In this document: positions 1 through 63,654 of the stretch, piece by piece
Layout: every line of letters begins with the position of its first letter
Position numbering within the stretch: position 1 is the first letter of the stretch
Assembly (NCBI GenBank): GCA_965203875.1
Contig: OZ241914.1
Span: 553,145 to 617,144 of the forward strand
Origin: Bdellovibrionales bacterium
GTDB lineage: Bacteria > Bdellovibrionota > Bdellovibrionia > Bdellovibrionales > JAUICD01
Reading direction: 5' to 3'
Length of the DNA: 64,000 nt
The notes under the pieces: generated by a model
Seen by the model: the letters and a program-made list of their open reading frames with translations, nothing else
Database searches by the model: none
Told to the model about the DNA's origin: nothing
Translations under genes and position numbers: made by a program

Positions 1-75
1 GTGGAAAATACCAGATAAAATGTTAATCAACATCAAAGCAACTTATCAAGGTATATTCTGACGGATTGTCTAAAC
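1..75 (+). repeat. Partial, degenerate right (R) module of the hairpin-repeat family at the window edge
   Basis: ...gataaaatgtt...tcaaggtatattctgacggattgtct resembles the R-module variant ...gataaaatgtttaccagctctcaaggtatattccaacagactatct at 50860-50906. It is interrupted and truncated by the window start. Confidence 0.35.
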
Positions 76-2887: not shown

Positions 2888-2895
2888 CTAAGGTT

Positions 2896-3284
2896 AAGGG
2901 TTTTCAATTTTTGATAAACACACATAGCGAAACGGTCCGACCGAAGGTCAAAGTGAAGCTAGTGTGTGTTTATTAAAAATGTTTACCAACGTTCAAGGTA
3001 GACTATAAAAGAACTGCCATAAGGGTTTTCAATTTTTGATAAACACACATAGCGAAACGGTCCGACCGAAGGTCAAAGTGAAGCTAGTGTGTGTTTATTA
3101 AAAATGTTTACCAACGTTCAAGGTAGACTATAAAAGAACTGTCATAAGGGTTTTCAATTTTTGATAAACACACATAGCGAAACGGCCCGACCGAAGGTCA
3201 AAGTGAAGCTAGTGTGTGTTTATTAAAAATGTTTACCAACGTTCAAGGTAGACTATAAAAGAACTGCCATAAGGGTTTTCAATT
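2896..3284 (+). repeat. Tandem array of 3 near-identical 125-bp hairpin-repeat units plus a trailing partial L-module
   Basis: Units start at 2896, 3021 and 3146, and a partial unit at 3271 (aagggttttcaatt). Unit: aagggttttcaatttttgataaacacacatagcgaaacggtccgaccgaaggtcaaagtgaagctagtgtgtgtttattaaaaatgtttaccaacgttcaaggtagactataaaagaactgccat. Only two substitutions separate the copies (3142 and 3186). Internal inverted repeat: ataaacacacatagc / gctagtgtgtgtttat. Confidence 0.95.
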
Positions 3285-5619: not shown

Positions 5620-7926
5620 GTGTTAGGATTAATTAAAGTTCTTAAAAATCTTCTTAAAGATGCTCTTAAAAAAACCATGAGAGTCTTTAGTGTTTTAGCG
5701 TCCACAACCTGTCTGTTAGTCTTGTTTTTCCAAACGTCTGCACATGCCCAACAAGTTGTAGGTACTTACACCGATCCAACCATCAATGATATAAGCCTTG
5801 CTAATAAAGCTGTATCTTCTTGCGGAATTTTAGAAGAAGTAATTACTAAAAATAAAGACACAGCAGATATTCTAGCTTCACAAGCTTTTATAGAACTACA
5901 AAAAATAAAAGATGGAAAACTTTTAATAGATAACAAAACTTGCCAAGAGAGTATTTTAGAATTTGTTAAAAGTTTATGTTCATCTGAATCGCCTACAAAC
6001 AAACTTTATTGTGAAAGATTAGGCATTCAAAAAAGCACCGATACTGAAACAGACGGCTATAAAACATTTGGTCAATCTGCTATTGACGAGCTGGGTATAG
6101 ATTTAGCGGATGACATAGATTTTGAGCTAAACCAAAGCCAGCAAGATCAAAGTAGAATAAAGTTTCTTGCATCAGGAGCATTGTTTTATTTAAGCCCTGT
6201 GAAAAAATTAAGGTTTATTCCTACAGCCACAAGAGCAGTAGCTGCTAGGGTAAAGCCTGTACTTAGCGGAGCTTTATTGGTGTTAGCTACATTGGGATTA
6301 TCTTCTTGTGGTGATGCAGGCGGCATAGCAGAACCACCAGTCATTGTGGATACTCCTTGTACAAGAGAAGAAGATGGATACTTTGAAGCAGGTAGTGAAT
6401 GTATAAAACTTCCCTATGTAAGCTATACTTTTATTACTGAAGATGGCACGGAGTTAGAAGAGAGTGATGGTAGCCCAACCGCTACTATTAAAATTGAATT
6501 TGATTCTAAAATGTTGTTTTTAGGCGATGATGGTAAGTTCTCCGAGCTAACAAAAGGTAATGTTGTAGACATGCTTATTGTTGCACCTATCAGTGGTGGT
6601 AGTGATTTAGCAAGATTAAACGGCCCTATTAGTGAGGATCAAATATCGATCGCAACTACAGCCCAAGAAAAAACAGTAATTATCATAGAGCCGCCCAATT
6701 CTAAAGTTTATCAAGCTGACAGCTATAGGGCGATAGTTACCAATTACGTAAAAGAGGAACATGCAGCAAAAATACATTCAAATAGACTTTTAGCGTACCT
6801 ACAAACAGCACAAAGTTCTGCAGAGTTTTCCATATCTATTAATGAAAGTTTATTGTGCGAAGTTGAGACTGAGACATCTCAAAGTGCAGCATCGCACAAT
6901 CATGAACATATAAATTCAAATGATAATCAAGATGATCATTCTTTTTGTGCGTCACATTTGCTTGATCTTCCACGTCCAAGTGCACAGCCTGGTATTATGA
7001 AACAAGTAGAATATGAAAGGGCTGATCCTAATACTACCTACGTGATTGATGTTGCGTTTATTCTGTCTAGAAGCTACCGCATAGGTACATGGCGATCTCG
7101 TCTTATAGAAGAGATTATTCCTGCTGTGAATGATATTTACCAAAACTCAGGGGTCAATGTTAGATTTAGAGTGGCAGCTGTTAAACCGTCTGCCGATTGT
7201 ACACACTATTCGCCTTGTCAGATGCAGATTGCAGATATTGATGACTTGCCTCCAGAGGCAACAGTTGAGGCTGTTCAGAGAATGACAAAAGGTATGCAAA
7301 GAGACTATGGAGCTGATTTGGTCTACGGGTTAAGTCACTATTCAGGCGGCGGTGGAGGTGGAGGAGTTTGCGGAGTAGCTTATACTAGAGTTAATGGCTT
7401 AACAAAAGATATGGCAAAGGAATATGCGGCTGGTAGTGTAGATTTTAATTGTCAGGGGTTGTTTACTGATAGATCAGAGTCGTTTAAAATTTATTACGTC
7501 ACACAAGTTCTTGCACATGAAATTGGTCATAATCTGGGGTTATTGCACGATAGAGCAAATGACTCTGGTGACAATCAACCATTTTATCCTGGAGGTTATG
7601 GATATAAAGGTGCTGCCTTGATCCAGACAGGTAATTCACCTCCTACTTACGACTATCGTGGAATAGGAACAATAATGTCATATTCACAAAATGACGAATA
7701 CGTTCCTTTCTTTAGTGCTAATAAAGCGGTGAATAGAGATCTGTTATGTGGTGACAGAGATAGATTTGATCATGTACTAGATAATGGATTTTGTCCTGTA
7801 TACCAGGATTATCTGCCAGAAGGAGAACTTATTAGCATAGGTTATGAAGGTGCTAATGCTTCAGAAGCTCTTCTGTACACAATAAAGGATGCTTCCCAGT
7901 TTGTTTGTGAACCTGGCTCCTGCTAA
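5620..7926 (+). CDS. Secreted zinc metalloprotease (metzincin, reprolysin-like HExxHxxGxxHD)
   Basis: VLAHEIGHNLGLLHD (nt 7507-7551) is the extended metzincin zinc-binding motif. Probable start at 5677 (MRVFSVLASTTCLLVLFFQTSAHA signal peptide). Confidence 0.75.
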   Translation: MLGLIKVLKNLLKDALKKTMRVFSVLASTTCLLVLFFQTSAHAQQVVGTYTDPTINDISLANKAVSSCGILEEVITKNKDTADILASQAFIELQKIKDGKLLIDNKTCQESILEFVKSLCSSESPTNKLYCERLGIQKSTDTETDGYKTFGQSAIDELGIDLADDIDFELNQSQQDQSRIKFLASGALFYLSPVKKLRFIPTATRAVAARVKPVLSGALLVLATLGLSSCGDAGGIAEPPVIVDTPCTREEDGYFEAGSECIKLPYVSYTFITEDGTELEESDGSPTATIKIEFDSKMLFLGDDGKFSELTKGNVVDMLIVAPISGGSDLARLNGPISEDQISIATTAQEKTVIIIEPPNSKVYQADSYRAIVTNYVKEEHAAKIHSNRLLAYLQTAQSSAEFSISINESLLCEVETETSQSAASHNHEHINSNDNQDDHSFCASHLLDLPRPSAQPGIMKQVEYERADPNTTYVIDVAFILSRSYRIGTWRSRLIEEIIPAVNDIYQNSGVNVRFRVAAVKPSADCTHYSPCQMQIADIDDLPPEATVEAVQRMTKGMQRDYGADLVYGLSHYSGGGGGGGVCGVAYTRVNGLTKDMAKEYAAGSVDFNCQGLFTDRSESFKIYYVTQVLAHEIGHNLGLLHDRANDSGDNQPFYPGGYGYKGAALIQTGNSPPTYDYRGIGTIMSYSQNDEYVPFFSANKAVNRDLLCGDRDRFDHVLDNGFCPVYQDYLPEGELISIGYEGANASEALLYTIKDASQFVCEPGSC

Positions 7927-8004: not shown

Positions 8005-9110
8005 TTACTGCATGCTGGAGTGCCGCTGACGTTTGAGTTTACTCACTCTTTGCTTAGAAACTCCAACTAATTTAGCAATATCAGACACGCTCACCTTATT
8101 TTTTAACATGTTTAGTATTACTTGTGTCAGACCCCGCTCTATACCCTGCTCTGCTGCTTCTTCAGCCAGCTCTTCTGCATAAGATTTATATTTCATCATA
8201 ACACGTTTCTCCTTGGACACACATTTGCTTTCTAACTTAGCTACTTCATCGTAAACAGCACTGTCATACAATCTAGCACTAGCACTGCATAACAACTCCA
8301 TACCTTCTTTGTACTTACTCAAACTTAACAGCTTACCAGCACGAGTAAACAGCTCTTTCAGCTCAGCTTTTATGCTGTTTTGCTAGTATTGTATAGTACA
8401 CCTTGAACGTTGGGCAACTTTTTCAATAAGTGTACACCTAGCTCCACTTTCGGCCTATAGCCTAATCGTTTCGCTAGTGTACGCTTATCGAAAACGAAGA
8501 TCTTGAATGCGACTGTCAATTTACCTATTAATCTGCAAACATCTAAATTGTGCAAATTTAACAACATATATTGAAAATTCAACACATGCTTTTCTAAAAA
8601 TGAATGCAGCCAACTAGGGTATTCTTTCAAACCCAACTGGTTATGAAATGATAAAGGAACATCCCAACTACGGCTCTTACCATGATACAAAACAACCGGT
8701 ATCACAACATAACCTTCCTTCTTATACTGCTTATATATAGAGGCCATATAAGATAATAGCTGGTAATGTACGTACTTATCTTTACTACTTTTGTGCTCAA
8801 TCAACACAAACACTCTTATTTTAACTTCTTGTAACAACAAACGAAAACACCATGTCTGCTATCGTTTCACCTGACGTGCCTACAAACGTACCAGATTCTA
8901 TTTTGAGACTTTTTTTATTCATCTTTGCAAGAATAGAACTAGGCAAGATTAAGCTCAATAATTCTAAAGCATACTTAGGACTACTCAGAAAAACATCCTA
9001 ACTATCTGATCACTTCTTTTAGTTGATTCTCTTTTTTTAGCTTTATGCTTAACGATAGGTTTGGTTACTTTTGACTTCTTGGTTTTATTTTTTGTCAGTT
9101 TCTTTTTCAT
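8005..9110 (-). pseudogene. Decayed Rpn/YhgA-like (PD-(D/E)XK, transposase_31-type) recombination-promoting nuclease gene
   Basis: Three frame fragments on the minus strand reconstruct one protein. (1) ATG at 9110: MKKKLTKNK...RSDQIVR, then a frameshift. (2) DVFLSSPKYALELLSLILPSSILAKMNKKSLKIESGTFVGTSGETIADMVFSF, then a stop near 8822. (3) VKIRVFVLIEHKSS...VIPVVLYHGKS (the hhhhEHxS core typical of the family), which runs into a repeat unit at 8504-8382. After the repeat comes KAELKELF...AEQGIERGLTQVILNMLKNKVSVSDIAKLVGVSKQRVSKL (typical C-terminal HTH-like tail). Confidence 0.6.
8382..8504 (-). repeat. Hairpin-repeat unit (L-hairpin-R) located inside the Rpn-like coding sequence
   Basis: Minus-strand reading: caagatcttcgttttcgataagcgtacactagcgaaacgattaggctataggccgaaagtggagctaggtgtacacttattgaaaaagttgcccaacgttcaaggtgtactatacaatactagc. 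The tail of ORF 8370..8840 (AKRLGYRPKVELGVHLLKKLPNVQGVLYNTSKTA) is a translation of the repeat. Confidence 0.85.
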
Positions 9111-9275
9111 AAGACTAATCATCCCAACATAACATCACTGATACTTACAAGATAAAAACACTGTTAAAACACAACACTGATAGAAAATACATATGGTAAA
9201 ATATTCCCTGTATTTATTTGAGAAAAATTAACATTTGATGACAGTTTTTACATATAAAATGTTTTCACTATCTTA

Positions 9276-9457
9276 CTTATGACCTTAGGTCGGTCTGTTT
9301 CGCTACGTGTGTTATTAACAAAGAAAACCTTGAGCTGATTCTTTTGTAGTTTACCTTGAACGTTGCACAACTTTTTTAATAAATGCACCCTGGCTTCACT
9401 TTCGGCCTTTGGCCTAATCGTTCCACCAGTGCACATTTATTAAAAACGAAGGGCCTT
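9276..9457 (-). repeat. One full hairpin-repeat unit (9332-9457) followed by a half unit (9276-9331)
   Basis: 9332-9457 is the reverse complement of ...taaggcccttcgtttttaataaatgtgcactggtggaacgattaggccaaaggccgaaagtgaagccagggtgcatttattaaaaaagttgtgcaacgttcaaggtaaactacaaaagaatcagctc. 9276-9331 matches the L-module plus the left half of the hairpin (aaggttttctttgttaataacacacgtagcgaaacagaccgacctaaggtca). Confidence 0.85.
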
Positions 9458-9530
9458 ATTCTAAAGTTCTTGGGCATCCTGGTCGATCTAAACCTACATA
9501 CAGCAACAAAAAACCAGAAAAGTAGGCCCC

Positions 9531-10031
9531 TTGGACACCACACAACAAAACAATATCGATCAAATAACAGAGTTTATTAAAAAATTCGATATAAAGCTAA
9601 AAACAGAAATTTCCGATAAGGGGAACCTAACAATAACACAAACCCTAGACAGTAAATCCATAGTAATAAAAAAAGATGAAATAAAAGACTTACTACAAAG
9701 AAACGACTCCAACGGACAATTCTTCATGCAAGTCAACTTCGAAAGCGGAAAAAGAATCCTACTAACCGATCTACTAATAGGTTTCGAACCCCACCCCATT
9801 GAAGGCCTAGAACCAAACATGCTACCAAAAGTTGTAACTACACAAGACCTACACAACGTGTTCGAAGCACTAGAAAACGTAGTATCAGATGAAACAACAT
9901 CAAAAAACGAAATATCAGCCTTAAAAAAAATATTCGATTCCATCATACAAGGCGGTGAAGCCATAGGGTTTAATTTAAAATCAGAAAAGTGCTGGCCACA
10001 CGGACTGGCATACACAAAAGCTTCAGCCTAA
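9531..10031 (+). CDS. Hypothetical protein (atypical A+C-rich coding strand, TTG start)
   Basis: 166-aa ORF with a protein-like sequence (…FFMQVNFESGKRILLTDLLIGFEPHPIEGLEPNMLPKVVTTQDL…). I recognise no family. Its 3' end converges on pilQ. The equally long antisense ORF is Ser/Cys/Phe-rich and looks spurious. Confidence 0.4.
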   Translation: MDTTQQNNIDQITEFIKKFDIKLKTEISDKGNLTITQTLDSKSIVIKKDEIKDLLQRNDSNGQFFMQVNFESGKRILLTDLLIGFEPHPIEGLEPNMLPKVVTTQDLHNVFEALENVVSDETTSKNEISALKKIFDSIIQGGEAIGFNLKSEKCWPHGLAYTKASA

Positions 10032-12238
10032 ATATCATCAAACTCTTCACTAAAATCTTCATCAGCAGCAACATCCTCTTCATCATCTTCCAACTGACTC
10101 AAATTCATACCAATAGCAGCACCTCTGTTTATAATGGTAGGAGTTAAAAAAATCATAAGCTCATTCTTACCACTAGATGTGGTACTATTTTTAAACAAGT
10201 TACCCAATAAAGGAAGCCTTCTAAGAAAAGGTACTCCTGATTCACTTACATCCCTGTCACTAGTATAAACACCGCCTATCACAGTAGTATCCCCATGTTT
10301 TACAAATACATCCGTTGAAATATCCCTTGAATATTCAGTGTCATCCGAACCAGAAGCATACTTTCTTTGCATTGCAACTTTCATGGTAACACCATCAGCA
10401 GAAATAATGGGTGTTACATCTAAACTGAGAGGCAAATCCCGGTACTCACGAGTCTGGGTAGTGGAGTTAATTTCATTGTTGACAGTCTCGTTAATTTTTA
10501 CACGTGTCTCGGTTTGACTTATTTTTGCAGCCTTATTATTTAAAGTTACAACTCTAGGAGAAGCCAATATCCTAGCCACACTTTTAGTCTCAAGAAAATT
10601 GAGCCTGGCCGTGAGATCACCAATGGATATGGCGGGCATATTAGAAATCGTCAGGCCTAAAGAGGCAGTACCTCCACCACTAAACGGCAAAGATATGCTA
10701 GGATCAGCATCTTCGTCAACTGTTTCTATCTGCATACCAAAAGATTTAGCAAATGATTCACTGGCTTCAATTATTTTTCCTTCTATTAAAACCTGTAAAG
10801 CAGGTCTATCTATTTTATCTTTTACAAGTTTTCTTATCTGAGCTATTTTCTTCACTGAATCTTTAACCAATAAAGAATTATTGTCCTTTAAAACATGAAT
10901 TGTGCCCTTATCAGTTAAAACTTTCAGACCGTTTATTGCTGCTACAACATCATCCGCTTTGGAGTTGTATATGGGTATAACATCGTTTTCCACAGGTCCT
11001 AGATCTTCGATCTGTCTTTCAGCTTCAGCCTGTTGCTTTTGAGCTTCTGCTTGCTGTTTTTTAAAATTGGCTTGAGCCTGCACAGCACTTTGCATGTCAG
11101 CCAACGGTCTAATTATAATCACTTCACCTTGTCTAGTGTAACCTAAACCATTTGATTTCATTAATATACTAAGTGCCTGATCCCAAGGTACATTCCTAAG
11201 CTTGAAAGTTACCGTTTGATTAGGGATATTGGACATGAGTATATTAGCACCACTTTCTTCTATGATAAGTCTAATGGCATCCACGATAGGAGAATTACGC
11301 AGCTCTATAGAAATCAAATGTCCATAAAATTTATCAGGAGATCCATCAGTCTCATCGGTTCTCAAAGCACGGTCATCAAAGTTTTCTTGCTCTTGGGTGT
11401 CTTGCTGAACACTTTCTTCTACAAAATTGTCACTAGACGTTTCTTCGTAACTAGCATTTGAACCTTGTGCAGCAATTCGTATACTATTTCCAGACTGAGT
11501 AATATTGGGTTCTATATCTTCTCTTAACTGTATGACAAATCTAGCAACAGAAGATCCTTCACCTTGGTACCCTTGAAAAAAGCCTATGTTACTAGAAAAC
11601 TCCTTAGTGTCATAAGGTCTTTTAAATCTGTCAGGTAATCTAGCATTGGAAATTTCAACAACAACTTGTTTTCCACTGTTTGTTCTTCTGGTGCTATACT
11701 CCACACTATCACTGGCTGTTATTATTATGGTTCCACCGTCTTCATTACCGTTAAATTCAACATTAATTATATCGACCGTGTCGGAACTAGAAAATGCTCC
11801 AGCATCACTCAAGTTTGATTCCGTTTCACTTACACTAAAATCGTCCTCGGATTCTTCAAACTCTTCTTCTATTTCATCTTCTATACCTTCTGACTCTGCT
11901 TCAATCTCAACTCCATCTGTCTCTTCTTCGACTTCTGTTTCAACTTCTGCTTCTTCTAAAACTTCCTCCTCATTAGAAATTTCACTTTCATTAGAAGTAT
12001 CTTCACTAGAAGATTCATCTTCTGAGCCTACTTGTTCTAATGCTGCTTCTATTTCATCTAATTCAGAATCAGCTGCGGTTGCTTCTTCTTCATCTTCCGA
12101 TAATTCATCTGCAAAATCTTGCTCATCAGGGTTATCAAATTCTACGTCGCTAGACGTAACAGTATCTTCCTGGGCTAGAGATCGTTTGCCTATGTCAAAG
12201 ATCAAAAATATAAACAGTAAAGTTAGTAATAATCTCAT
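10028..12238 (-). CDS. pilQ: Type IV pilus secretin PilQ
   Basis: 736 aa. It has a C-terminal secretin domain (…SPRVVTLNNKAAKISQ…VIGGVYTSDRDVSESGVPFLRRLPLLGNLFKNSTTSSGKNELMIFLTPTII), an AMIN-like region and an N-terminal signal. It lies last in the pilMNOPQ order. Confidence 0.9.
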   Translation of the reverse strand: MRLLLTLLFIFLIFDIGKRSLAQEDTVTSSDVEFDNPDEQDFADELSEDEEEATAADSELDEIEAALEQVGSEDESSSEDTSNESEISNEEEVLEEAEVETEVEEETDGVEIEAESEGIEDEIEEEFEESEDDFSVSETESNLSDAGAFSSSDTVDIINVEFNGNEDGGTIIITASDSVEYSTRRTNSGKQVVVEISNARLPDRFKRPYDTKEFSSNIGFFQGYQGEGSSVARFVIQLREDIEPNITQSGNSIRIAAQGSNASYEETSSDNFVEESVQQDTQEQENFDDRALRTDETDGSPDKFYGHLISIELRNSPIVDAIRLIIEESGANILMSNIPNQTVTFKLRNVPWDQALSILMKSNGLGYTRQGEVIIIRPLADMQSAVQAQANFKKQQAEAQKQQAEAERQIEDLGPVENDVIPIYNSKADDVVAAINGLKVLTDKGTIHVLKDNNSLLVKDSVKKIAQIRKLVKDKIDRPALQVLIEGKIIEASESFAKSFGMQIETVDEDADPSISLPFSGGGTASLGLTISNMPAISIGDLTARLNFLETKSVARILASPRVVTLNNKAAKISQTETRVKINETVNNEINSTTQTREYRDLPLSLDVTPIISADGVTMKVAMQRKYASGSDDTEYSRDISTDVFVKHGDTTVIGGVYTSDRDVSESGVPFLRRLPLLGNLFKNSTTSSGKNELMIFLTPTIINRGAAIGMNLSQLEDDEEDVAADEDFSEEFDDI

Positions 12239-13083
12239 TGTTTTCCCATTTTATCGATAGTATCTATTTTCAAAAGTTCTGTTTCATATGCACGTCTTCC
12301 TGTCGTAGAAGGTTTGCTGGTTGCAGTCTCTTCTTGTTTTGCTACCTTATCTGAGACATCGCTTTCAAGTCTCAAAATTTCGGTTTCGTATGAATGCCCT
12401 ACTTTCATAGAAGGTTCAATAACTACAACTTCTCCTTCTCTAATAGCGGCTATATATCCTTTATTGACTCCTATTCTTTCATTTTTTCTAGCTATGTAAG
12501 AAGAACCGTTTGGATCTAAAAATACCGCTCTAGGAGCAGCCGTGCGCCACAAAATTCCAGTCAACCTTAACTTTTCTATAGGAAAGCTTTCTAAAGGCAT
12601 TTTTGGATCCAAAAATTCTGTCACAATCTCTGTAACATTAGCAGGTGATCTTTGTGCAAAGGCTCTAGTAAAAGGATCTCTATTCAGATTCTCTTCTCTT
12701 ATTTTATAATTCAAAACTATTCCTTCAGCTCCAAATCCAACACCAGAAGGAATACCATCTTCAACCTCTGGAGATGGTGGTTCATCAGAACTACTTACCG
12801 TGGATGCATCCAAATCAGCTCCATTACTTACATCAGAATCAGGTGCATCGGAATCAGGCTCACTAACTATTTGAGTAGTAGAGGTAACAGAGGGAGTAGC
12901 ATCATCAGGATTTGAGTCAGGTGCAGGCGGAGGAGTACTCACAATCTCGGGATCAGAGTTAGGGGCAGGTGGAGGAGTATTCACAATTTCAGGATCAGAG
13001 CTAGTTTCAGTAACAGGAGGAGGGCTTGCCTCTTGAGCATTTACAATAACCGGAAAAATAATGAAAAATAAATACCTAATCAT
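12235..13083 (-). CDS. pilP: Pilus assembly protein PilP (with a Pro-rich tandem-repeat linker)
   Basis: It sits between pilO and pilQ with 4-bp overlaps. The C-terminal LESFPIEKLRLTGILWRTAAPRAVFLDPNGSSYIARKNERIGVNKGYIAAIREGEVVVIE fits the PilP beta-domain pattern. The N-terminal part carries the SDPEIV[NS]TPPPAP[ND] x2 repeat. Confidence 0.75.
   Translation of the reverse strand: MIRYLFFIIFPVIVNAQEASPPPVTETSSDPEIVNTPPPAPNSDPEIVSTPPPAPDSNPDDATPSVTSTTQIVSEPDSDAPDSDVSNGADLDASTVSSSDEPPSPEVEDGIPSGVGFGAEGIVLNYKIREENLNRDPFTRAFAQRSPANVTEIVTEFLDPKMPLESFPIEKLRLTGILWRTAAPRAVFLDPNGSSYIARKNERIGVNKGYIAAIREGEVVVIEPSMKVGHSYETEILRLESDVSDKVAKQEETATSKPSTTGRRAYETELLKIDTIDKMGKQ
12916..12999 (-). repeat. Two imperfect 42-bp in-frame tandem repeats within pilP
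   Basis: Plus strand: gtcaggtgcaggcggaggagtactcacaatctcgggatcaga / gttaggggcaggtggaggagtattcacaatttcaggatcaga. They encode SDPEIVNTPPPAPN and SDPEIVSTPPPAPD. Confidence 0.85.
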
Positions 13084-13715
13084 GTTGTCTTAGAACCGCC
13101 TTCGTCATTATTCTCAGCCAAAGATTTATAACCCTTTAACAATAGCTCAGCTCTCAGGTTATCAGTTCCTGGTAGCTTGACAAGATTCAAGCTTTCCAAC
13201 ACTATTAAGTTGTTGTGATTGGAAATAACGTTAATAAAAGATACCAAATTAGCGTGACTACCTTCTAAGACAAATTGTATTGGCAAGGTTTCATAAAATT
13301 CATGAGTGGTAACTTTATCTCTAGCAGGTACCCTAGAGATTTCTCTAATAGAAAATCTACTTAACTGGCTTTTAACAGTGCCGCCTAAATTGATAAAACT
13401 CTGTGTTCTAGGATAATATGACTCCAATTCACCTAGTGTAACTTTCTTATCATCCAAATATCTTTTCACTTCTTGTTCTTTACCAGCTTCACTCTGTTTA
13501 GCAGACATTTGTTCTTCAACGGCTACTATCTGTTCGTTTATAGATGTAATTTGTGTTTTAATTTCGTCATTGGAATAGACACCAAAGTAAAAATATAAAG
13601 CAGCAATTAACAAGCCAATGGCATTTGCATTCAAGTATGAAAGATCATTAATTCTGTGCATATTGTCTCCCAGATATTTTTGCTGAAATATCAAATTGTA
13701 TTGCATCAGAACCAA
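13080..13715 (-). CDS. pilO: Pilus assembly protein PilO
   Basis: It has a single TM (AIGLLIAALYFYFGVY), a coiled coil and a C-terminal domain, and lies between pilN and pilP. The likely true start is Met at 13661 (MHRINDL…). Confidence 0.7.
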   Translation of the reverse strand: MVLMQYNLIFQQKYLGDNMHRINDLSYLNANAIGLLIAALYFYFGVYSNDEIKTQITSINEQIVAVEEQMSAKQSEAGKEQEVKRYLDDKKVTLGELESYYPRTQSFINLGGTVKSQLSRFSIREISRVPARDKVTTHEFYETLPIQFVLEGSHANLVSFINVISNHNNLIVLESLNLVKLPGTDNLRAELLLKGYKSLAENNDEGGSKTT

Positions 13716-14247
13716 TACTCTCTCTGTCTAACAAAACTTGATCTTGATCAAAAGTAGAATCAGATCCAAGTTGACTAACAAACTGTTTTATAGCATCGCT
13801 AGATGCCGACAAACCTGATATTTTTAAGCTACCAGTGTTGTTATCCACGTTTAAGTTTTTTAAAAAAACCTGTTCAGGTATATTTACCCTCACAGCATCA
13901 ATGGCTCTCAGAGGTGATATTCTCAGTTCAAAAATTTCTTTTATCTTTTGAAGCTGTAAATCTATTTTTTGGCTCTCTTCACTCATGCCACTAATCATTT
14001 TTAGTTTATTTTCAATTTCTAATGCTTCATTGTTCTTTGAATCCAGGGTAGCTTGTCGCTCATCTCTATTCACAGTTTCAATTACGGAATACACTTTGCC
14101 AGCCCCAACACAAATAACAAGCCAAATCAATATGCAGAACATTTTCTTAATAGCGTCCGACATATCAACGCCAGAAACGTACTTCTTAACTGCATCACTC
14201 TTTGAAGCAGCGTCATCTAAATCTTTAAGCAAATTAACTTCAATCAT
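13648..14247 (-). CDS. pilN: Pilus assembly protein PilN
   Basis: N-terminal MIEVNLL (the conserved PilN INLLP-like motif), a single TM (MFCILIWLVICVGAG) and a coiled coil. It follows pilM. Confidence 0.75.
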   Translation of the reverse strand: MIEVNLLKDLDDAASKSDAVKKYVSGVDMSDAIKKMFCILIWLVICVGAGKVYSVIETVNRDERQATLDSKNNEALEIENKLKMISGMSEESQKIDLQLQKIKEIFELRISPLRAIDAVRVNIPEQVFLKNLNVDNNTGSLKISGLSASSDAIKQFVSQLGSDSTFDQDQVLLDRESIGSDAIQFDISAKISGRQYAQN

Positions 14248-21761: not shown

Positions 21762-22671
21762 AGCATCTGCTCCATCAAATTTAGCTTTGGTAAAATATAT
21801 GGGAAAAAGATCAAAGGATAATTTCCCAATAAATTCATCACTTTCCATAACTCTAGATCATTTGAAAACTACTGTGGAATTAGAACAAAGTAATGCTGAT
21901 CAATTTCAAAACAACGAACTAAAGCTTGAACAAAAAGAGTGTAAAAGATTTTTAGACCATCTAAAATTTCTAAAAGATAAATTCTGTGTTGATGAATGTT
22001 TTAAAATCAAATCCTATAATAACTTCCCTGCTAGCTCTGGATTTGCTAGCTCAGCCAGCAGTTTTGCTGCACTTACATTAGCTTTTGCAGAATTCTTACG
22101 CTCAAAAAACAGGCGTCCTGACATTGAAACATTATCTGCGTTAAGTAGAAGGGGTTCTGGGTCATCTTGCAGAAGTTTTTTTGCACCATGGTGTCTATGG
22201 GATCATGTAACCGGAAAAGCTAGCAAAATTGATTTGCCAGATTATAAATTTATATTTCTATCGGTTATAATTTCTAAAAAGAAAAAGATCTCCTCATCTT
22301 TGGCTCATCAAATAGTTCAAAGCTCGCTACTGTATGATGGAAGAGCAAAGAGAGCACAGGAGCGTTTAGATTTGATTATTGAAAATTTAAAAAAAGACAA
22401 CTGGCAAAATTTATTTCAATTAATAAAAGCAGAATTTTGGGATATGATGGGTTTGTTTCATACTTCCATGCCTGGATTTTTTTACATAGAACCTGGTTCA
22501 ATCGAAATATTAAAAAATGTAGAAAAAATTTGGCATGATCATAAAACAGGTCCATTAGTAACAATGGATGCAGCTTCAAGCGTACATCTAATTTTCAAAC
22601 CACAAGATAGTAACATTGCATTAAATATGAAAAACAATCTGAACTTTCCATATATATATCATGAAAGTTAA
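21730..22671 (+). CDS. mvaD: Diphosphomevalonate decarboxylase
   Basis: ASAPSNLALVKYMGKR (NIAxIKYWGK-like), the GHMP motif SSGFASSASSFAAL and RRGSGSSCRS. Confidence 0.85.
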   Translation: MISAKVCMIFKASAPSNLALVKYMGKRSKDNFPINSSLSITLDHLKTTVELEQSNADQFQNNELKLEQKECKRFLDHLKFLKDKFCVDECFKIKSYNNFPASSGFASSASSFAALTLAFAEFLRSKNRRPDIETLSALSRRGSGSSCRSFFAPWCLWDHVTGKASKIDLPDYKFIFLSVIISKKKKISSSLAHQIVQSSLLYDGRAKRAQERLDLIIENLKKDNWQNLFQLIKAEFWDMMGLFHTSMPGFFYIEPGSIEILKNVEKIWHDHKTGPLVTMDAASSVHLIFKPQDSNIALNMKNNLNFPYIYHES

Positions 22672-25513: not shown

Positions 25514-26767
25514 ATGAAAGTCAACCAAATATATCATGGTGATAACCTTCATTTTATGCCTGATATGAAGCCTGAAAGTATAGATTTAATTTATATTGAT
25601 CCACCATTTGGAACACAGAGTTTATGGCAATCTAAAGCGTTTAGGGAAAAAGTACAAGAATTAAAGTTTTATGATATTTTTGGAGGCGGTGACTCAGGAT
25701 ATATAAATTTTATGGTCCCAAGGCTAAGGCAGATGCACAGGCTTTTAAAACCTACTGGCTCTTTGTTTGTTCACCTGGATTGGCGAATGAGTCATTGTAT
25801 TAAGATGGAGCTGGACAAAATATTTGGAGTTACAAATTCAGCTTCTTCAAAAACAAATTTTATTAATGAAATCATTTGGTTTTATCCAAATGGAGGGGGA
25901 AGAGGTAAATCTCGATTAAATAAAAAACACGACACCATACTATGGTACGCCAAAGATAAAGCACAATTCAAATACAACTGGAAAGACATTTCATTGACAA
26001 GGAACAAGGATCAAAAAACTTTTGGAGGATATTTTAAAAAAGATAAAAAAGGAACCTATCAGGAGGTAAGATCAAACAATAAAATCTACAAGTACTATGT
26101 AGATGAACCAAAAAATAATGACGATGTGTGGTTTTTAAATATCATCTCACAAAGAGATAAGACTGAAAGGCTAGGTTATCCAACTCAAAAACCTCTAGAT
26201 TTACTTAAAAGAATTATACTAATGGCCTCAGATAAAAATGATCTTATTGCAGATTTTTTTTGTGGCTGCGGAACAGCTATTGATGCTGCTCAAATATTAG
26301 ATAGAAGATGGATAGGAATGGATGCAAGTCATACAGCTTGTGAAGTTATGCAAAAAAGAATGGAAGATAGGCATAGTCTTTTTATTGGAATAGACAAAAA
26401 GCCTATGACTTATGAAGAATTTAAAAAACTTAAGCCTTTACAATTTGAAAAAGAAGCTGTCCGTTATATTGGCGGTGTGACAAATGATGTGCAAATTGGA
26501 GATGGAGGAATTGATGGCAGATTAGCTTTTGACGGAACACCAATACAAGTAAAAAAGTCTGAAAAACCAATGGGAGATACAGATCATTTTAGGAGTTTTT
26601 ACATGCCACTAAAAGAACATGGGAGAGGTATTTTTATTACTTTAAGCGGCTATACAAATCCAGCAAAACAGAGAGCCAATGATTGGCGTAAAGAAGGTTT
26701 AGATATTCAATTATTAGATATAAAAGATATTCTGGCTGGCAGATTCAGAGAACAACCAGCAGCATGA
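25514..26767 (+). CDS. DNA methyltransferase (N6-adenine/N4-cytosine, beta-class order) fused to a C-terminal Mrr-like PD-(D/E)XK domain
   Basis: Motif IV DLIYIDPPF near the N-terminus, YPTQKP, and motif I ADFFCGCGTAIDAA…WIGMD. In the C-terminal ~110 aa (nt ~26441-26767), GDGGIDGRLAFDGTPIQVKKSEK…GRGIFITLSGYTNPAKQRAN…IQLLDIKDIL parallels the Mrr catalytic-domain pattern D-GIDG…(i)Q-K…GvfiTTsxFtxxA…LiDgxxL. Confidence 0.75.
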   Translation: MKVNQIYHGDNLHFMPDMKPESIDLIYIDPPFGTQSLWQSKAFREKVQELKFYDIFGGGDSGYINFMVPRLRQMHRLLKPTGSLFVHLDWRMSHCIKMELDKIFGVTNSASSKTNFINEIIWFYPNGGGRGKSRLNKKHDTILWYAKDKAQFKYNWKDISLTRNKDQKTFGGYFKKDKKGTYQEVRSNNKIYKYYVDEPKNNDDVWFLNIISQRDKTERLGYPTQKPLDLLKRIILMASDKNDLIADFFCGCGTAIDAAQILDRRWIGMDASHTACEVMQKRMEDRHSLFIGIDKKPMTYEEFKKLKPLQFEKEAVRYIGGVTNDVQIGDGGIDGRLAFDGTPIQVKKSEKPMGDTDHFRSFYMPLKEHGRGIFITLSGYTNPAKQRANDWRKEGLDIQLLDIKDILAGRFREQPAA

Positions 26768-28955: not shown

Positions 28956-29743
28956 CTAATAAGTGGGCAAATTAGGTTTCAACAACTTGCGTACTTTGGA
29001 TTTTCTCCCGAAACCAAGTAAACCAAGTGCAAAAGGTGGATTATAATAGTTGTATAAATCGATAGGTATCATATATCTAACATCATCACCAAGGACGCCT
29101 TGCATCTTTATATGTGCTGCTAAAGTAACATCAGCACCATTTTCAACAAATAGTTCAGCCGTTTTCCAATATTCAGACATAGCCATTTTGTGTAGTACTT
29201 TAGTCCGTCCTTAAAAGTAGTATTTACATTACTTCCGTAATCAATCAATAGCTGCATTTTATTAAGCTCTTGTTTGCTTTGACCAGATATTGCCAATGCC
29301 ATTAAAGCAGTAGCACCATCAAAGGATCTTCTTTGATCTAGCAGCACATCAATTTCATCTGACAGATCTATAAAAGTTTGAATGAATTCAAGTGAGATAT
29401 TCTTTCTTGCAGCGTAGTGCAATTTATTTTCACCCCATTTGTTTACTGACTCTATATTCAGACCATTTTTTGTTAATAAAATTAGTGCAGATACACTCTG
29501 TACTATGTGTGCAAGTGTGTTGTGAGAGTTATTAAATTTTGCATTTACATTAGCTCCTTGGTCAATGATATGCTTAATTTGATCTAGATCAGGTTTGCGT
29601 TTATTAACCGCATTAAAAAGTTGTTCATCTAATTTTTCCTGCTTTAACGTTAAGGCTCGAGCACAATCGTAGGATGTTGTACTAGCAGATGCATGTGATA
29701 CACATACTAGGAAAATAAAATAGACACCAAAACTTCTCATCAC
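28956..29743 (-). pseudogene. Secreted ankyrin-repeat protein gene split by a 1-nt frameshift (paralog of 29839..30678)
   Basis: ORFs 29120..29743 and 28956..29186 together align along the full length of the intact paralog. The frame changes near 29208-29216 (…NVNTTFK | GRTKVLHKMAMSEYWKTAELFVENGADV versus the paralog …NAAVKKNRTTALHKAAKYGYLKAAELLIENGASV). Confidence 0.7.
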
Positions 29744-29838
29744 GAGATGGTAACATACATCTTACAAAGTGTAAGTATTTTAATGATCTACGTTTATAAA
29801 TAATTTGTAAATATATAAGTAACTTTTTCAAGTTTCAG

Positions 29839-30678
29839 CTACCGTACTTTGTCACGATACGGTCTATACTCTGCATTAGAGTTTAATACTCTAGGTAGAG
29901 TAGGCCTCAGCAATGTACGTGCTTTGGAGTTTTTCCTGAAATCCTCAAAATGTGCGTGATACTGATACAAATCTATGGGTAGCACATGTCTAGCTCTATG
30001 ATCAAAGCCAAGCTTTAACTTTGCCATTGCATCAACACTTGCACCATTTTCAATTAATAATTCGGCAGCTTTCAAATATCCGTACTTGGCTGCTTTGTGT
30101 AGTGCTGTTGTTCTATTCTTCTTAACAGCAGCATTTACATCACTTCCGTTATCAATCAACAGCTGCATTTTCTCAAGCTTTTGTTTACTTTCACCAGATG
30201 ATGCTAATACCATCAAAGGAGTAGCACCGTCATAGGTTCTTCTTTGATCTAACAGTGCACCGCTGTCTTCGCTTGAAAGTTCTATGAAAGCTTTAATTAA
30301 TCCAAGTGGGGTATTTCTTTTTTCAGCGTAGTGCAGTCTGTTTTCACCCCCTCTATCTACTGATCCTAAATGTAGGCCATTTTCTGCCAATAGGACTAGT
30401 GTAGACACACCCTTTACTGCATGTGCAAGTGTTTTGCGAGACCGTCCAAACTTTGCATTTACATTAGCTCCCTGACCTATAAGATACTTAATTCGATCTA
30501 GCTTTGGCCTTCGTTTAGTAACTGCACTAAAAAGTTGTTCATCTAATTTTCTTTGTTCCAACATCAAAGCTTGAGTACAAGCGGAGGATGTTGTGCTACC
30601 TGAAACTGAGGTATGTGCACATACCAAAAAGAAAATACAAAATATAACACAATTTTTCACCGCAAAACAGTAACACAT
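29839..30678 (-). CDS. Secreted ankyrin-repeat protein
   Basis: Signal-like N-terminus (VIFCIFFLVCAHTSVSG) and ANK motifs (…TALHKAAKYGYLKAAELLIENGASVD…, GQGANVNA…). It is a tandem paralog of the downstream gene. Confidence 0.8.
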   Translation of the reverse strand: MCYCFAVKNCVIFCIFFLVCAHTSVSGSTTSSACTQALMLEQRKLDEQLFSAVTKRRPKLDRIKYLIGQGANVNAKFGRSRKTLAHAVKGVSTLVLLAENGLHLGSVDRGGENRLHYAEKRNTPLGLIKAFIELSSEDSGALLDQRRTYDGATPLMVLASSGESKQKLEKMQLLIDNGSDVNAAVKKNRTTALHKAAKYGYLKAAELLIENGASVDAMAKLKLGFDHRARHVLPIDLYQYHAHFEDFRKNSKARTLLRPTLPRVLNSNAEYRPYRDKVR

Positions 30679-30774: not shown

Positions 30775-30902
30775 AAACTTGTTCACCATACGCAACAAAT
30801 CTTAGTGTAAGGCTTTCAAGCCAGTCGTAGACTGGCGTACCTCGGAAAGCCTTACACTAAGATTTGTTGTATTAAAAACTCGATCAAAAATGAATACCCT
30901 TA
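30775..30902 (-). repeat. L-module plus class-B long hairpin immediately 3' of rpoN
   Basis: Minus-strand reading directly after the rpoN TAG: TAAGGGTATTCATTTTTGATcgagtttttaatacaac…. A perfect 25-bp inverted repeat follows (30793-30817 caacaaatcttagtgtaaggctttc / 30845-30869 gaaagccttacactaagatttgttg) enclosing an inner hairpin ccagtc-gta-gactgg. Confidence 0.85.
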
Positions 30903-32351
30903 CTAATAAAACCTCTTCCTTCTCCTGGAAGAAGGTATCCCCAAACGCTCCCTATACTTAGACACAGTCCTTCTGGCTACGTCAATTCCACTGGCTCTTA
31001 ACATAGTCCAGAGCTTAGAATCCGAATAAGGTTTTTTTGGATCTTCATTATCTATAATATTTTTAATCTGTGATTTAACCTTGTTGCTAGCAACAAACTG
31101 ACCGCTATCACTAGATACACCAGAATTAAAAAAATACTTAAGCTCAAAAATACCTCTAGGAGTATGCATGTATTTATTAGTAGTCACTCTAGACACTGTT
31201 GACCCATGCAAACCCACGTCATGAGCTATATCTCTTAAAATCATGGGCCTAATAAAATCCTTACCTTTTTCAAAAAATTCCATCTGATGTTTCACTATGC
31301 TACTAGCCACCTTGTATATAGTTCGCTGCCTCTGATCAATAGAATTTATTAAAAAACGAGCAGACTTCAACCGCTCCCTTATATAATTCTTAGCCTCACT
31401 CTTTGCCAAAGAACTAGAACGAAAAGTCTTTTTATAAAAATTAGAAATTCTTATTCTAGGCACGCCTTCATCATTGAGTGATACGACATAGCCACCTCGT
31501 TGTACTTTATTAACATACACATCAGGAACAACATATTGAGTTTCGTTATTATCAGGTGAAAAAACAAAGCCAGGTTTAGGATCCATATCAAACACTATCT
31601 GACACAGCTCTTTTACATACTCGATGCTAAGTTTCATTTTTTTAGAAATGGTTTTATAATCCCTATTCTCCAAATTAGTTAGATGGTTTTGTACCAACTC
31701 TACCACATCCTTTGTATCTTCTTCCAAATGCTTGGCCTGGATCAAAAGACATTCTTTTAGATTCCTAGCACCTACACCAGGTGGATCAAATTCATGAAGC
31801 AAAACCAGATTTTCCTCTAAAGCCTCTAATTCAATACCCACCTCTTCAGATATTTTTTCAAGTGGAGTTTTTATATAGCCATCGTCCTCTACGTACTCAA
31901 CTAATTTACCTACAACATGAACTTCCTCATCACTGAAGCCGCTAAGCCCAACCTGCCAATTCAAATGATCAGAAAGAGTCCTAGAAGAAGATATTACGTT
32001 TTCATAACTCCTGGCTTCATCCTTGCTATATTTGGTCACGGTTTGATCTGTACCACCTGCACTATCTACATACTTTTCCCAATCGAAGTCGTCTTGATCT
32101 GCTTTTCTTGGATCATCATAAGACTCCAGATCACTTTCCTTAGAATCTCTTAACTCACCACCTTGTAGATCTTCTGCTTGAGTATCTGTTATTTCTTCTA
32201 AAACGGGATTTTCTTCCATCTCCTTTCTTATAGCTATTTCTAATTCAATCCTGGACATTTGCAATAATTTGATCGCCTGCTGAAGTTGAGGGGTAATCCT
32301 CAAAGTTTGTATCTGAGACGTATTCAAAGTCTGTTTAAATTGCTGAGACAT
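30903..32351 (-). CDS. rpoN: RNA polymerase sigma-54 factor
   Basis: N-terminal Gln-rich region I (LNTSQIQTLRITPQLQQAIKLLQMS), an HTH region and the RpoN box ARRTVSKYRE near the C-terminus. Confidence 0.95.
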   Translation of the reverse strand: MSQQFKQTLNTSQIQTLRITPQLQQAIKLLQMSRIELEIAIRKEMEENPVLEEITDTQAEDLQGGELRDSKESDLESYDDPRKADQDDFDWEKYVDSAGGTDQTVTKYSKDEARSYENVISSSRTLSDHLNWQVGLSGFSDEEVHVVGKLVEYVEDDGYIKTPLEKISEEVGIELEALEENLVLLHEFDPPGVGARNLKECLLIQAKHLEEDTKDVVELVQNHLTNLENRDYKTISKKMKLSIEYVKELCQIVFDMDPKPGFVFSPDNNETQYVVPDVYVNKVQRGGYVVSLNDEGVPRIRISNFYKKTFRSSSLAKSEAKNYIRERLKSARFLINSIDQRQRTIYKVASSIVKHQMEFFEKGKDFIRPMILRDIAHDVGLHGSTVSRVTTNKYMHTPRGIFELKYFFNSGVSSDSGQFVASNKVKSQIKNIIDNEDPKKPYSDSKLWTMLRASGIDVARRTVSKYRERLGIPSSRRRKRFY

Positions 32352-33778: not shown

Positions 33779-34963
33779 GTGCTTATGAATCACTCTATGA
33801 ATGAATTAAAACAGCGTTTGCAGGACTTAAAACAGAAGATTATAGAAACAGAACAAGCTCAGATAAAGCTAAGCGAACAGGACACCAGACAAGGATTGAT
33901 AAACCCGCTGTTTGAAGCACTAGGGTGGGATTTTTCTGACTTCAGATCTATCAGAAGTGAATTGAGACACAAAAAATACAATAACCCCGTGGATTATGCT
34001 TTCTACAACAGTCAAAAAAATTCCACAAAAAATCAGGATAAAAATACACAAGGCAACATTCCTATTTTATTGCTGGAAGCCAAGGCCCTTGGAACTGATC
34101 CGAATAAACCTAGAATAGTAAAACAGTTGTGTGCTTACTTAGGTGAGATGGGTGTTCAGTGGGGAGTAATAACAGATGGAAATAAGTATGTTATGTATAA
34201 CTCCAGGTCAGGTGCTTCTTTTGAAGATCAGAAGTTTATAACTTTACAGATAAAGACATTTGATACAGATGATGGTATCCCTCTACAAGCTCTAGCTGAA
34301 AAGTTTTTTGCTCTATTAAGTCGAAAATGTCTTGAAAATGTTGGAATCCAAGAAACATATGAAACTGTAGCCATGGACAGACAAATTGAAGATGCTTGGG
34401 AATCTCTTTTAACAGAACCTTTTGATACACTTGCCAGTGCAATAAGAAAAGAGTTTAAACAAGATAGGGTTAAAGTTGACCAAAATCTAAAAGTTACCCT
34501 GAAACAAATTATATCCTATTTTGAGAACAGAAAAGATGATGAGGGCCGAATACAGTTTGATTATAATAATCAGGGTAATTTGAGTGATGCTATAATGCAT
34601 AAAATTGTTGAGTTACAACAAGGATCTGATGGCAAGGTAGATACTAGTAAACTATCGGTAGTAGGTCCTAAGCGAATTTCAGTTAGAGATTTACTAAAAA
34701 GTGGTTTTTTAGAAGAAGGAGATCCTTTAAGGCTGGAGTTTAAAGGTGAAGTTGCCTGGGGTAGAGTTACTGGTAATGGAGAGATTGAAGTTGGTGGAAA
34801 GGTTTATACAAGTCCTTCAAGAGCTGGTCAGTCTGTCACTGACAGAAGTTGTAATGGATGGACGTATTGGCAATACAGAGACAAAGATGAATGGAAATCA
34901 CTAGGCCACTTGCGTACTCTGTATATGGGACAATCAGACACTGAGCCAAAGAAAGCTGTATAA
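33779..34963 (+). CDS. PD-(D/E)XK (HsdR-N-terminal-like) nuclease domain protein with a C-terminal RAMA-like domain
   Basis: N-terminal SEQDTRQGLINPLFEALGWDF…VDYAF…ILLLEAKALG…QLCAYL…WGVITDGNKYVMYN (D…ExK pattern as in type I R-subunit N-termini). C-terminal ISVRDLLKSGFLEEGDPLRLEFKGEVAWGRVTGNGEIEVGGKVYTSPSRAGQSVTDRSCNGWTYWQY matches my recollection of the restriction-enzyme/adenine-methylase-associated (RAMA) domain. Confidence 0.6.
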   Translation: MLMNHSMNELKQRLQDLKQKIIETEQAQIKLSEQDTRQGLINPLFEALGWDFSDFRSIRSELRHKKYNNPVDYAFYNSQKNSTKNQDKNTQGNIPILLLEAKALGTDPNKPRIVKQLCAYLGEMGVQWGVITDGNKYVMYNSRSGASFEDQKFITLQIKTFDTDDGIPLQALAEKFFALLSRKCLENVGIQETYETVAMDRQIEDAWESLLTEPFDTLASAIRKEFKQDRVKVDQNLKVTLKQIISYFENRKDDEGRIQFDYNNQGNLSDAIMHKIVELQQGSDGKVDTSKLSVVGPKRISVRDLLKSGFLEEGDPLRLEFKGEVAWGRVTGNGEIEVGGKVYTSPSRAGQSVTDRSCNGWTYWQYRDKDEWKSLGHLRTLYMGQSDTEPKKAV

Positions 34964-41120: not shown

Positions 41121-41175
41121 AGGTGTTGGTAATTTATCTTGACCTTAGGTCTGCCGTTTCGTTATGTACCAAATC
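41119..41175 (-). repeat. Degenerate, internally deleted hairpin-repeat remnant
   Basis: gtgttggtaatttat resembles the reverse complement of the R-module (acgttggtaaacattt). cttgaccttaggtctgccgtttcgttatgt resembles the reverse complement of the hairpin loop (ctttgaccttcggtcggaccgtttcgctatgt). Confidence 0.4.
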
Positions 41176-43642: not shown

Positions 43643-43750
43643 CAAATCTTTTTGTAGCTTTAAGCCTTGCGGCTTACCGCTTCGCTAATCAAACATTTGA
43701 TAAAATTTAAAGACCTTTAGGCTTTAGTCTGGCCTTGAACATAAATTAGC
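43641..43750 (-). repeat. Shortened hairpin-repeat unit plus a fragment, starting within the final two bases of the tig-like stop codon (43640-43642)
   Basis: aaatctttttgtagctttaagccttgcgg…cgcttcgctaatcaaacatttgataaaatttaaagaccttta is a reverse-oriented unit with a truncated hairpin and an L-module (rc: taaaggtctttaaatttt). It is followed by ggccttgaacat (a fragment of the R-module in reverse complement). Confidence 0.6.
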
Positions 43751-45270: not shown

Positions 45271-45306
45271 ACTTTAAGTCTAAAGTTTTCCATTAATAAT
45301 AACAGT

Positions 45307-50998: not shown

Positions 50999-51002
50999 CT
51001 GA

Positions 51003-63650: not shown

Positions 63651-63654
63651 ACTT

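Follow-up and report, generated by a model that had tools for sequence, protein, structure and literature searches.

The 125-bp tandem repeat at positions 2896-3284 of the window (the whole 64,000-nt stretch of DNA analysed here) is one array of a dispersed repeat whose unit folds into a long hairpin; compensatory changes preserve this fold, which exists on just one of the two strands. The most probable reading, at roughly 60%, is that these mosaic intergenic repeats form a lineage-specific family of selfish or "small mobile" DNA, non-coding and non-autonomous, which would probably spread through a single-stranded intermediate. The host is an uncultivated, small-genome (1.24-Mb) member or relative of Bdellovibrionota: its Lon protease matches those of relatives with 77-85% identity and those of Bdellovibrionales/Bdellovibrionota with 59-64%. 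Genes in the window include pilMNOPQ (type IV pilus), rpoN, mevalonate-pathway enzymes, rsmH-ftsL-ftsI, lon, tig, and tolB, along with several genes for ankyrin-repeat proteins. A related strain (ENA ERZ25067941 contig_1, 1,239,795 bp), which encodes identical proteins but is a distinct sequence with 97-99.8% DNA identity to the window, serves as the main comparison.

Anatomy and census of the units

According to Tandem Repeats Finder, the focal array spans 2895-3284 with a period of 125, 3.1 copies, and 98% matches. Its first unit (2896-3020), on the plus strand like the whole array, comprises the L-module (2896-2912), the hairpin (2907-2980), the conserved tail GTTTACCAACGTTCAAGGTA (2981-3000), and a variable tail end (3001-3020). 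In a base-by-base comparison, the second unit (3021-3145) departs from the first only at 3142 (C/T) and the third (3146-3270) only at 3186 (T/C), where both units of the related strain carry C. A 14-nt partial L-module (AAGGGTTTTCAATT, 3271-3284) ends the array after the third unit. The sequence-only reading, which had proposed three 125-bp units starting at 2896, 3021, and 3146, a trailing partial unit, and two substitutions, is borne out by both analyses.

Units are 124-126 bp long and consist of the L-module, TAA(A)GGnnnTTCnnTTTT, the hairpin, an unpaired conserved tail, and a variable end. The hairpin is a single imperfect stem-loop of 75-80 nt in which TTTTTGAT pairs with ATTAAAAA. Compared with the division into L-module, hairpin, and R-module proposed earlier, the hairpin is longer, taking in TTTTTGAT of the former "L-module" and ATTAAAAA of the former "R-module". 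At its base lies an AT-rich lower stem of ~17-20 bp; the middle part of this stem is variable yet paired. Above the lower stem, the 3' arm carries a one-base bulge, followed by a 4-bp helix (UAGC/GCUA or UGGC/GCCA) and a 3x3 internal loop with GNA on both strands (GNA/GNA), where G·A, N·N, and A·G pairing would be possible. The 2-bp helix above this loop covaries (AC/GU, GC/GC, or GU/AC), and a second internal loop is bounded by an invariant G and an invariant A. The apical stem is GC-rich, 4-6 bp long, and capped by a loop of three bases, GAA in most cases. Outside the hairpin, a non-palindromic tail of ~45 nt is found on its 3' side alone: the unpaired GTTnnnCAACGTTCAAGGTA, which is the best-conserved primary sequence of the unit, and a variable end of ~20 nt that exists in two recurrent types (GACTATAAAAGAA... 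or TATTCCAACAGA...), after which the next L-module begins.

Copies were located with nhmmer, seeded with one unit, and then with a covariance model. Seven further loci of the window carry the same unit as the focal array, and the census amounts to 11 full and 4 partial units (1,969 bp, 3.1% of the window), with a GC content of 37-42%; the window has ~35% GC. The L-module pattern has 15 matches where 1.06 are expected, and the AACGTTCAAGGTA motif 15 where 1.84 are expected; none of 100 shuffles reached either count. Within every array, all units share one orientation. The recurrences listed in the sequence-only reading are all recovered by nhmmer and the covariance model, although the one at 43606-43721 turns out to be weak, partial, and on the minus rather than the plus strand.

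Four of these copies precede the 44.8-kb array, all on the minus strand. A single unit (8371-8505) lies within an Rpn/Transposase_31 pseudogene; a full unit of subtype A (9333-9458) has 94% identity to the units at 44840; a unit cut short in its 3' arm (9264-9332) stands at the edge of an Rpn cassette; and the degenerate partial unit at 43606-43721 (L-module and 5' arm; 33 bits, E 1.4e-4) is antisense to both adjacent genes. The 44.8-kb array, on the plus strand, opens with a solo L-module (44820-44839) whose TAA serves as stop codon for the preceding gene and which is duplicated in the related strain, flanking an extra unit. Two 124-bp subtype-A units, 100% identical, follow (44840-45087); they are part of a second tandem array that Tandem Repeats Finder reports as perfect (44840-45109, 2.2 copies of a 124-bp unit). 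Behind them come a chimeric unit (45088-45210), whose 5' and 3' arms belong to different subtypes and whose fold is weak (-16 kcal/mol), and a stretch at 45211-45291 made up of a short unit (45211-45274; L-module and tail, with the hairpin core deleted) and a trailing L-like remnant. The rsmH-ftsL spacer is occupied by a plus-strand array (50656-51000) of two full units (from 50656 and 50783) and one tail-less unit (from 50906), the first of which contains the rsmH stop codon (50672-50674). The last locus, 63643-63789 on the minus strand, lies upstream of tRNA-Leu and holds a single full unit (63664-63789) with a trailing L-like module (63643-63663).

Three remnants named in the sequence-only reading are recognisable by eye. 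The degenerate tail at 1-75 (plus strand) lies downstream of a three-unit array just outside the window (seen in L001 7352-7734) and is the only one with a model match, a marginal one in the related strain. The other two, seen by eye only, are an apical-core remnant at 41119-41175 (CGAAACGGCAGACCTAAGGTC on the minus strand) and a solo L-module at 63265-63285 (TAAGGGTTTTCGAT, plus strand), which overlaps the stop codon of ORF 62896-63267.

Covariation and strand specificity of the fold

RNAalifold, applied to 21 units, gives 22 pairs, 14 of them with compensatory changes. In an alignment of 23 distinct units fitted to the covariance model, 96.6% of the cells pair, compared to 79.3% in column shuffles and 31-48% in slid controls, where partners are moved by 1-3 columns. 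Compensatory change on both sides is found in 15 of the 22 pairs of this alignment, in which counts of covarying cells are inflated by kinship among the copies and by the fitting to the model; the conclusion that the stem covaries is safe despite this inflation, given the slid controls and how varied the pair types are. When every pair of columns is scanned, the covarying pairs 26-80 and 27-79 are added, which lengthen the same helix, and no long-range covarying pairs are detected, the L-module with the tail included.

The fold is specific to one strand. Stem cells contain 35 G·U against 3 A·C combinations; the mean minimum free energy is -30.7 kcal/mol in the forward and -23.9 in the reverse direction, i.e., better by 6.8 in the forward one; and full units score 97-143 bits with the covariance model on the forward strand versus 17-28 bits on the reverse. 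The hairpin is also stable under DNA parameters (z-scores of -6 to -10).

It is possible, though unlikely, that this asymmetry reflects a functional structured RNA, with units transcribed together with their neighbours or alone and serving to stabilise mRNA or to be processed by RNase III/E, as shown for REP, ERIC, and Correia elements, or else acting as a protein-binding motif or a family of small RNAs. A covarying fold confined to one strand, with conserved purine-rich internal loops, speaks for such a role. Lacking a U-run 3' of the hairpin, the units would be read through by transcription, several arrays begin at the stop codon of the co-oriented gene before them or overlap it, and the array in the rsmH-ftsL spacer fills, in sense orientation, a gap within the normally co-transcribed dcw operon. 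Many small repeats are indeed co-transcribed and affect mRNA stability (PMC3184786).

The orientation of the units, however, speaks against this explanation. In co-directional gene contexts, three loci are sense and three antisense to transcription, so that there is no bias and the proposal that units are always co-oriented with transcription is ruled out. One antisense case is a full three-unit array of the related strain: since ORF 9531-10031 (166 aa) is, by codon-position statistics, a plus-strand gene, the array there is antisense to both its neighbours. Chimeric units with broken stems persist, and the units contain no promoter-like (sigma-70-type) sites. A TTGCCC-N16-TATAAA stretch was considered as a promoter, but it lacks the final T in one tail type and is absent from the other. 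In the genus-level relative L020 (syntenic; Lon with 84% protein identity), the orthologous rsmH-ftsL spacer has no unit, which argues against a conserved cis function tied to these genes. Rfam offers no match to the units even at E<=10, where the best scores are 13-24 bits against thresholds of 35-211; only a tRNA of the window passes its gathering threshold. As the asymmetry is independent of local transcription, its simplest reading is selection on the element's own propagation.

Several narrower identifications were also rejected. No intrinsic terminators were found, the hairpin being preceded by a T-run on its 5' side and followed by an A-run on its 3' side on both strands. Coding potential is ruled out by stop codons, which are present in each of the six frames in 22-23 of the 23 distinct units, unlike in RPE-like in-frame palindromic inserts, through which a reading frame stays open. 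A resemblance to SRP domain IV (apical GGUCCG...GAAGG) is visible by eye in one subtype only and lacks model support. A CRISPR array would have unique spacers, whereas here whole 125-bp units repeat and the variable tail is of two recurrent types only. The GTTRRRY motif of integron attC sites appears in the apical loop of a single subtype, with neither cassette ORFs nor an integrase in the window; more generally, the positions that define a K-turn, an attC site, or an IHF site are not kept across subtypes. Counts around AACGTT are unremarkable with regard to restriction-site avoidance.

Turnover, dispersal, and distribution of the arrays

The related strain was assembled independently and contains the same arrays with small differences, so the arrays are not an assembly artefact. 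Unit number and order differ between the two sequences at three loci, a polymorphism for which the sequence-only reading had suggested looking. The focal array has three units in the window and two in the related strain, with flanks 99.8% identical, which agrees with the recent amplification proposed earlier. At 44.8 kb, the order [L][A][A][B][short] of the window corresponds to [B'][L][A][B][short] in the related strain, and a 19-bp L/L direct repeat flanks the B' indel. At 8-9.4 kb, the window has a 1.3-kb Rpn cassette and 1.5 units in place of a 3.3-unit array of the related strain. This comparison lends good support to unequal crossing-over or slippage, with L-modules and cores as partners, as the way in which arrays are resized. 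Strains that are otherwise near-identical differ in structure mainly at the arrays, which are therefore ready-made strain-typing (VNTR) markers and likely breakpoints of assembly errors.

Subtypes of L-module, stem, and tail combine freely among units, consistent with the modular architecture noted from the sequence. In two chimeric, poorly folding units (45088-45210 and L001 15728-15860), the arms of different origin indicate exchange at the conserved apical core. Members of subtype A share 90-94% identity across three loci, at 9.4 kb, at 44.8 kb, and immediately upstream of the window, which lie as much as 45 kb apart, while single arrays mix subtypes that are merely 59-80% identical; local duplication alone therefore does not build the arrays. 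A five-unit array outside the window (L012 16655-17286) has the subtype order X-Y-X-Y-Y.

The unit at 8371-8505 lies between the nuclease domain and the C-terminal helix-turn-helix region of the Rpn pseudogene. Compared with an intact paralogue (L014, 77% protein identity), it stands where ~34 bp of coding sequence were and thus swaps out this segment rather than duplicating a target. Neither this unit nor the other solitary one (63664-63789) has a direct repeat beside it that could represent a target-site duplication, and the strains compared yield no clean pair of empty and filled sites. At least five Rpn paralogues are present in the lineage. In L014, a second Rpn gene is located directly downstream of units.

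Recombination alone, with no dedicated enzyme, would account for many of these observations: copies of one ancestral hairpin spacer could have arisen through gene conversion, illegitimate recombination, and slippage, with L-modules and cores as microhomology and perhaps with help from the paralogues of Rpn, a recombination-promoting nuclease. Chimeric and mosaic units, identical adjacent units, the higher-order X-Y duplication, and the indel flanked by the 19-bp repeat all fit this explanation, as do the number of Rpn paralogues, the cassette inserted in an array, and the Rpn gene next to the units of L014. As a complete account it is nevertheless quite unlikely, since it leaves unexplained both the compensatory maintenance of the fold on one strand and the near-invariant unpaired motif beside the hairpin; moreover, 7 of the 9 sampled Rpn genes have no unit nearby. 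Since neither a clean empty/filled pair nor a target-site duplication was found, transposition as such stands as a proposal, and spread by recombination only would fit most of the data.

Beyond the window, the related genome contains further arrays upstream (L001 5950-6251 and 7352-7734) and downstream (L012 16655-17286), as well as a copy at L015 20921-21055, which answers the concern that the repeat might be a local duplication only. Of the same genome, ~61 kb sampled elsewhere, consisting of islands of defence and mobile genes (Thoeris, type ISP restriction, RhuM, and Rpn), contain one locus and one weak match, and ~45 kb more from two related assemblies add only that same locus again. The high density reported from the window thus holds regionally but not genome-wide, as the islands are nearly devoid of units. 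Strain-specific regions of Pseudomonas fluorescens SBW25 form similar "repeat deserts" (PMC2718517).

Outside the closest relatives, the family is scarce. A 22-base gapped pattern has no matches among 185,579 GTDB species representatives or in IMG/VR viral contigs, and its two matches in JGI metagenomes are due to chance, lying inside unrelated sequence. Blastn searches against plasmids, phages, and E. coli genomes give no match. Together with the Rfam result, this agrees with the sequence-only reading, which could not match the repeat to a named family. The genus-level relative L020 has one diverged copy (27 bits), which adjoins a tRNA and retains the GCG-UAA-CG ... GU-GAA-GC core with a covarying apical stem; the family therefore predates the species but expanded in the present lineage. 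The sequence GACCTTTATACT, common to intergenic spacers of L020, is not enriched in the window, and the Bdellovibrionota MAG L004 has neither synteny nor repeats in common with it.

Relation to known repeats and proposed mode of spread

The repeat is of a familiar kind but forms a new family, unrelated in sequence, and lacks the tested defining features of MITE, REP/BIME, ERIC, and BOX. Its behaviour is closest to that of BIME/REP clusters and Neisseria NIME, and its size and hairpin form are closest to ERIC. In NIME, reportedly described by Parkhill et al. in 2000, RS repeat units are separated by dRS3, a 20-bp inverted repeat that acts as an integration site for phages or IS. Both systems form intergenic arrays of several 50-150-bp unit types with a short conserved separator, and their composition differs between strains by recombination. 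Unlike dRS3, the separator here (the L-module) is direct and non-palindromic, each unit carries a long hairpin, and there is no sequence similarity to NIME. Mycobacterial MIRU/VNTR are reportedly (Supply et al., 1997) 40-100-bp intergenic tandem units with short ORFs that overlap the stop and start codons of their neighbours. They, too, differ in copy number between close strains and sometimes lie within operons, whereas the present units have stops in nearly every frame and periods (124-126 bp) that are mostly not multiples of three.

REP/BIME, REPIN/RAYT, and R0/R2 of P. fluorescens are presumed to move as single-stranded hairpins via a single-copy Y1 transposase (PMC2817692, PMC3184786). 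The present units resemble them as abundant, lineage-specific intergenic hairpins, solitary or in mosaic clusters. Like the present arrays, REP/BIME are recombination hot spots; they are missing from recently acquired regions (PMC2718517) and do without the terminal inverted repeats and target-site duplications that mark classical MITEs. Here, the inverted repeat is not terminal but internal, formed by the hairpin arms, and no target-site duplication was detected at the two solitary units. REP elements, on the other hand, are palindromes of ~35 nt (about 20-40), usually GC-rich, with a GTAG head and alternating orientation in BIMEs, while the units here are 125 bp long, AT-rich, in one orientation per array, and extended by the 45-nt non-palindromic tail after the hairpin. 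In contrast to REP/RAYT systems, no RAYT gene is seen in the DNA sampled: gene tables covering ~240 kb of the lineage list no Y1/HUH transposase, those of the loci fetched from the genome (<15% of it) list no PF01797-type gene, and no IS with matching ends was seen in those ~240 kb.

ERIC/RU-1 elements (127-bp imperfect palindromes) are similar in size, consist largely of one long imperfect hairpin, are intergenic, and can be co-transcribed (PMC3184786, PMC2759123), but they have terminal inverted repeats with flanking TA and form no head-to-tail arrays. Nor does 44838-45290 show similarity to ERIC/RU-1, RU-2, or RU-3: blastn at word size 11 yields no match in 5,426 complete E. coli genomes (20,395 records). 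BOX elements of Streptococcus pneumoniae are likewise modular, vary in module copy number, and have a predicted RNA structure (PMC3184786). In BOX, boxB alone is reiterated between a single boxA and boxC, whereas here the whole L-hairpin-tail unit is repeated, and no sequence similarity is found. The likeness to BOX or BIME suggested earlier consequently stands for behaviour, the defining features of either family being absent.

It is highly improbable that the units act as cruciform-forming elements or that a host protein (nucleoid, gyrase, or IHF-like, as suggested for BIMEs, which bind IHF, gyrase, and Pol I; PMC3184786) binds them as double-stranded DNA, because, while the palindromic AACGTT core and the long inverted repeats could form cruciforms, nothing in a duplex would make G·T preferable to A·C on one strand (35 versus 3), AACGTT is not unusual outside the units (10 of its 22 sites in the window lie outside), and the IHF-like WATCAANNNNTTR match is seen, by eye, in one subtype only.

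For the preferred reading, that of small mobile DNA, the arrangement of the unit is suggestive. Substrates of HUH enzymes (REP/RAYT, IS200/IS605 ends, oriT nic sites, and rolling-circle origins) share this layout of a hairpin with an adjacent conserved single-stranded site, and the C-GAA-G triloop is a classic example of a stable mini-hairpin in DNA. By analogy, the hairpin and the motif beside it may constitute a module for recognition and cleavage by a trans-acting enzyme on one single strand, most likely of DNA, as in REP/RAYT, IS200/IS605 ends, and other HUH substrates. New units would join beside existing ones, after which the size of an array could shift through exchange or slippage between its conserved L-modules and cores. 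Against this reading stand the presence of both orientations within 90 kb, with no simple bias towards a replication strand, and the lack of a mobilising enzyme in the ~240 kb sampled. Effects on nearby genes would be a by-product, with units supplying stop codons and read-through transcripts containing long double-stranded RNA stems. Such side effects at the RNA level are plausible from the sequence, considering the units without terminators, the array in the dcw operon, and the rsmH stop codon inside a unit.

More tentatively, Bdellovibrionota might have a strand-specific system for mobilisation or processing, so far unrecognised, whose substrate is the hairpin (including its extrahelical base and G·A motifs) together with the invariant unpaired CAACGTTCAAGGTA; it could act on single-stranded DNA, for instance through a divergent HUH/Y1 enzyme or an Rpn nuclease. 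Or else the unit might represent a new class of structured RNA, for instance a protein-binding or self-processing one. If either were true, the repeat would be more than passive repeat DNA.

The family gives Bdellovibrionota a structurally constrained repeat where, as far as the searches show, none has been described. Occupying ~3% of a core-genome region in a 1.24-Mb genome, it shows that such elements can thrive during genome reduction. The one-strand fold and the conserved motif next to it provide a handle for finding the enzyme that moves such elements.

Repeat units in the rsmH-ftsL spacer and around Rpn genes

In the window, repeats occupy the whole spacer between rsmH and ftsL in the dcw operon. 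The stop codon of rsmH (TGA) falls within the first repeat unit, the gene and the unit overlapping at 50656-50674, and the final few codons of the gene therefore come from the L-module, the conserved 5' part of each unit. The corresponding spacer of L020, a syntenic genus-level relative, is 237 bp long and differs from that of the window.

Another unit (8371-8505) constitutes an insertion within a pseudogene of the recombination-promoting nuclease Rpn/Transposase_31 (8005-9122, minus strand), which also carries a frameshift near position 8840. The entire ~1.3-kb Rpn cassette present in the window is missing from the related strain (ENA ERZ25067941 contig_1). At least five Rpn paralogues occur in the lineage, and co-oriented repeat units are located directly upstream of a second Rpn gene (2163-3257 in L014, a locus of a related genome).

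Other repeats in the window and in L020

Directly past the 3' end of rpoN (30903-32351, minus strand), two perfectly matching 25-bp arms separated by 27 nt form an inverted repeat (30793-30869), which has no relation to the 125-bp family and may be a terminator or another kind of element. The pilP-like gene (12235-13083, minus strand) contains an in-frame tandem repeat of 42 bp, i.e., 14 codons, in 2.1-2.4 copies (12905-13019).

L020 has a short intergenic repeat of its own (6171-6230, 9901-9935, and 21946-21978), in which a small hairpin, AAGTGAACAAGTCCACTTGTTTTT, precedes AGGAAGACCTTTATACT; this second segment includes the reverse complement of the L-module-like TAAAGGTCTTCC. Counted across the 64-kb window, this motif showed no enrichment.

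Defence, restriction-modification-like, and ankyrin-repeat genes

Defence islands of related genomes (L017 14967-18231, L018 13569-16839, and L014 4248-9137) encode Thoeris ThsA/ThsB, a type ISP restriction enzyme, RhuM-like genes, an AAA_13 protein, and a Schlafen/AlbA-like protein; the 125-bp repeat is nearly absent from them. The core region of the window holds two restriction-modification-like genes, both on the plus strand, coding for an N6/N4 DNA methylase-Mrr_cat fusion protein (25514-26767) and a protein with HSDR_N and RAMA domains (33779-34963).

Several ankyrin-repeat genes were found in the window (29120-30678, minus strand; 36376-37194, plus strand) and in L012, a locus of the related strain (12383-14190), including two neighbouring paralogues with 75-81% DNA identity across ~450 bp. 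The presence of these genes, combined with a genome size of 1.24 Mb, suggests a eukaryotic host-associated lifestyle.
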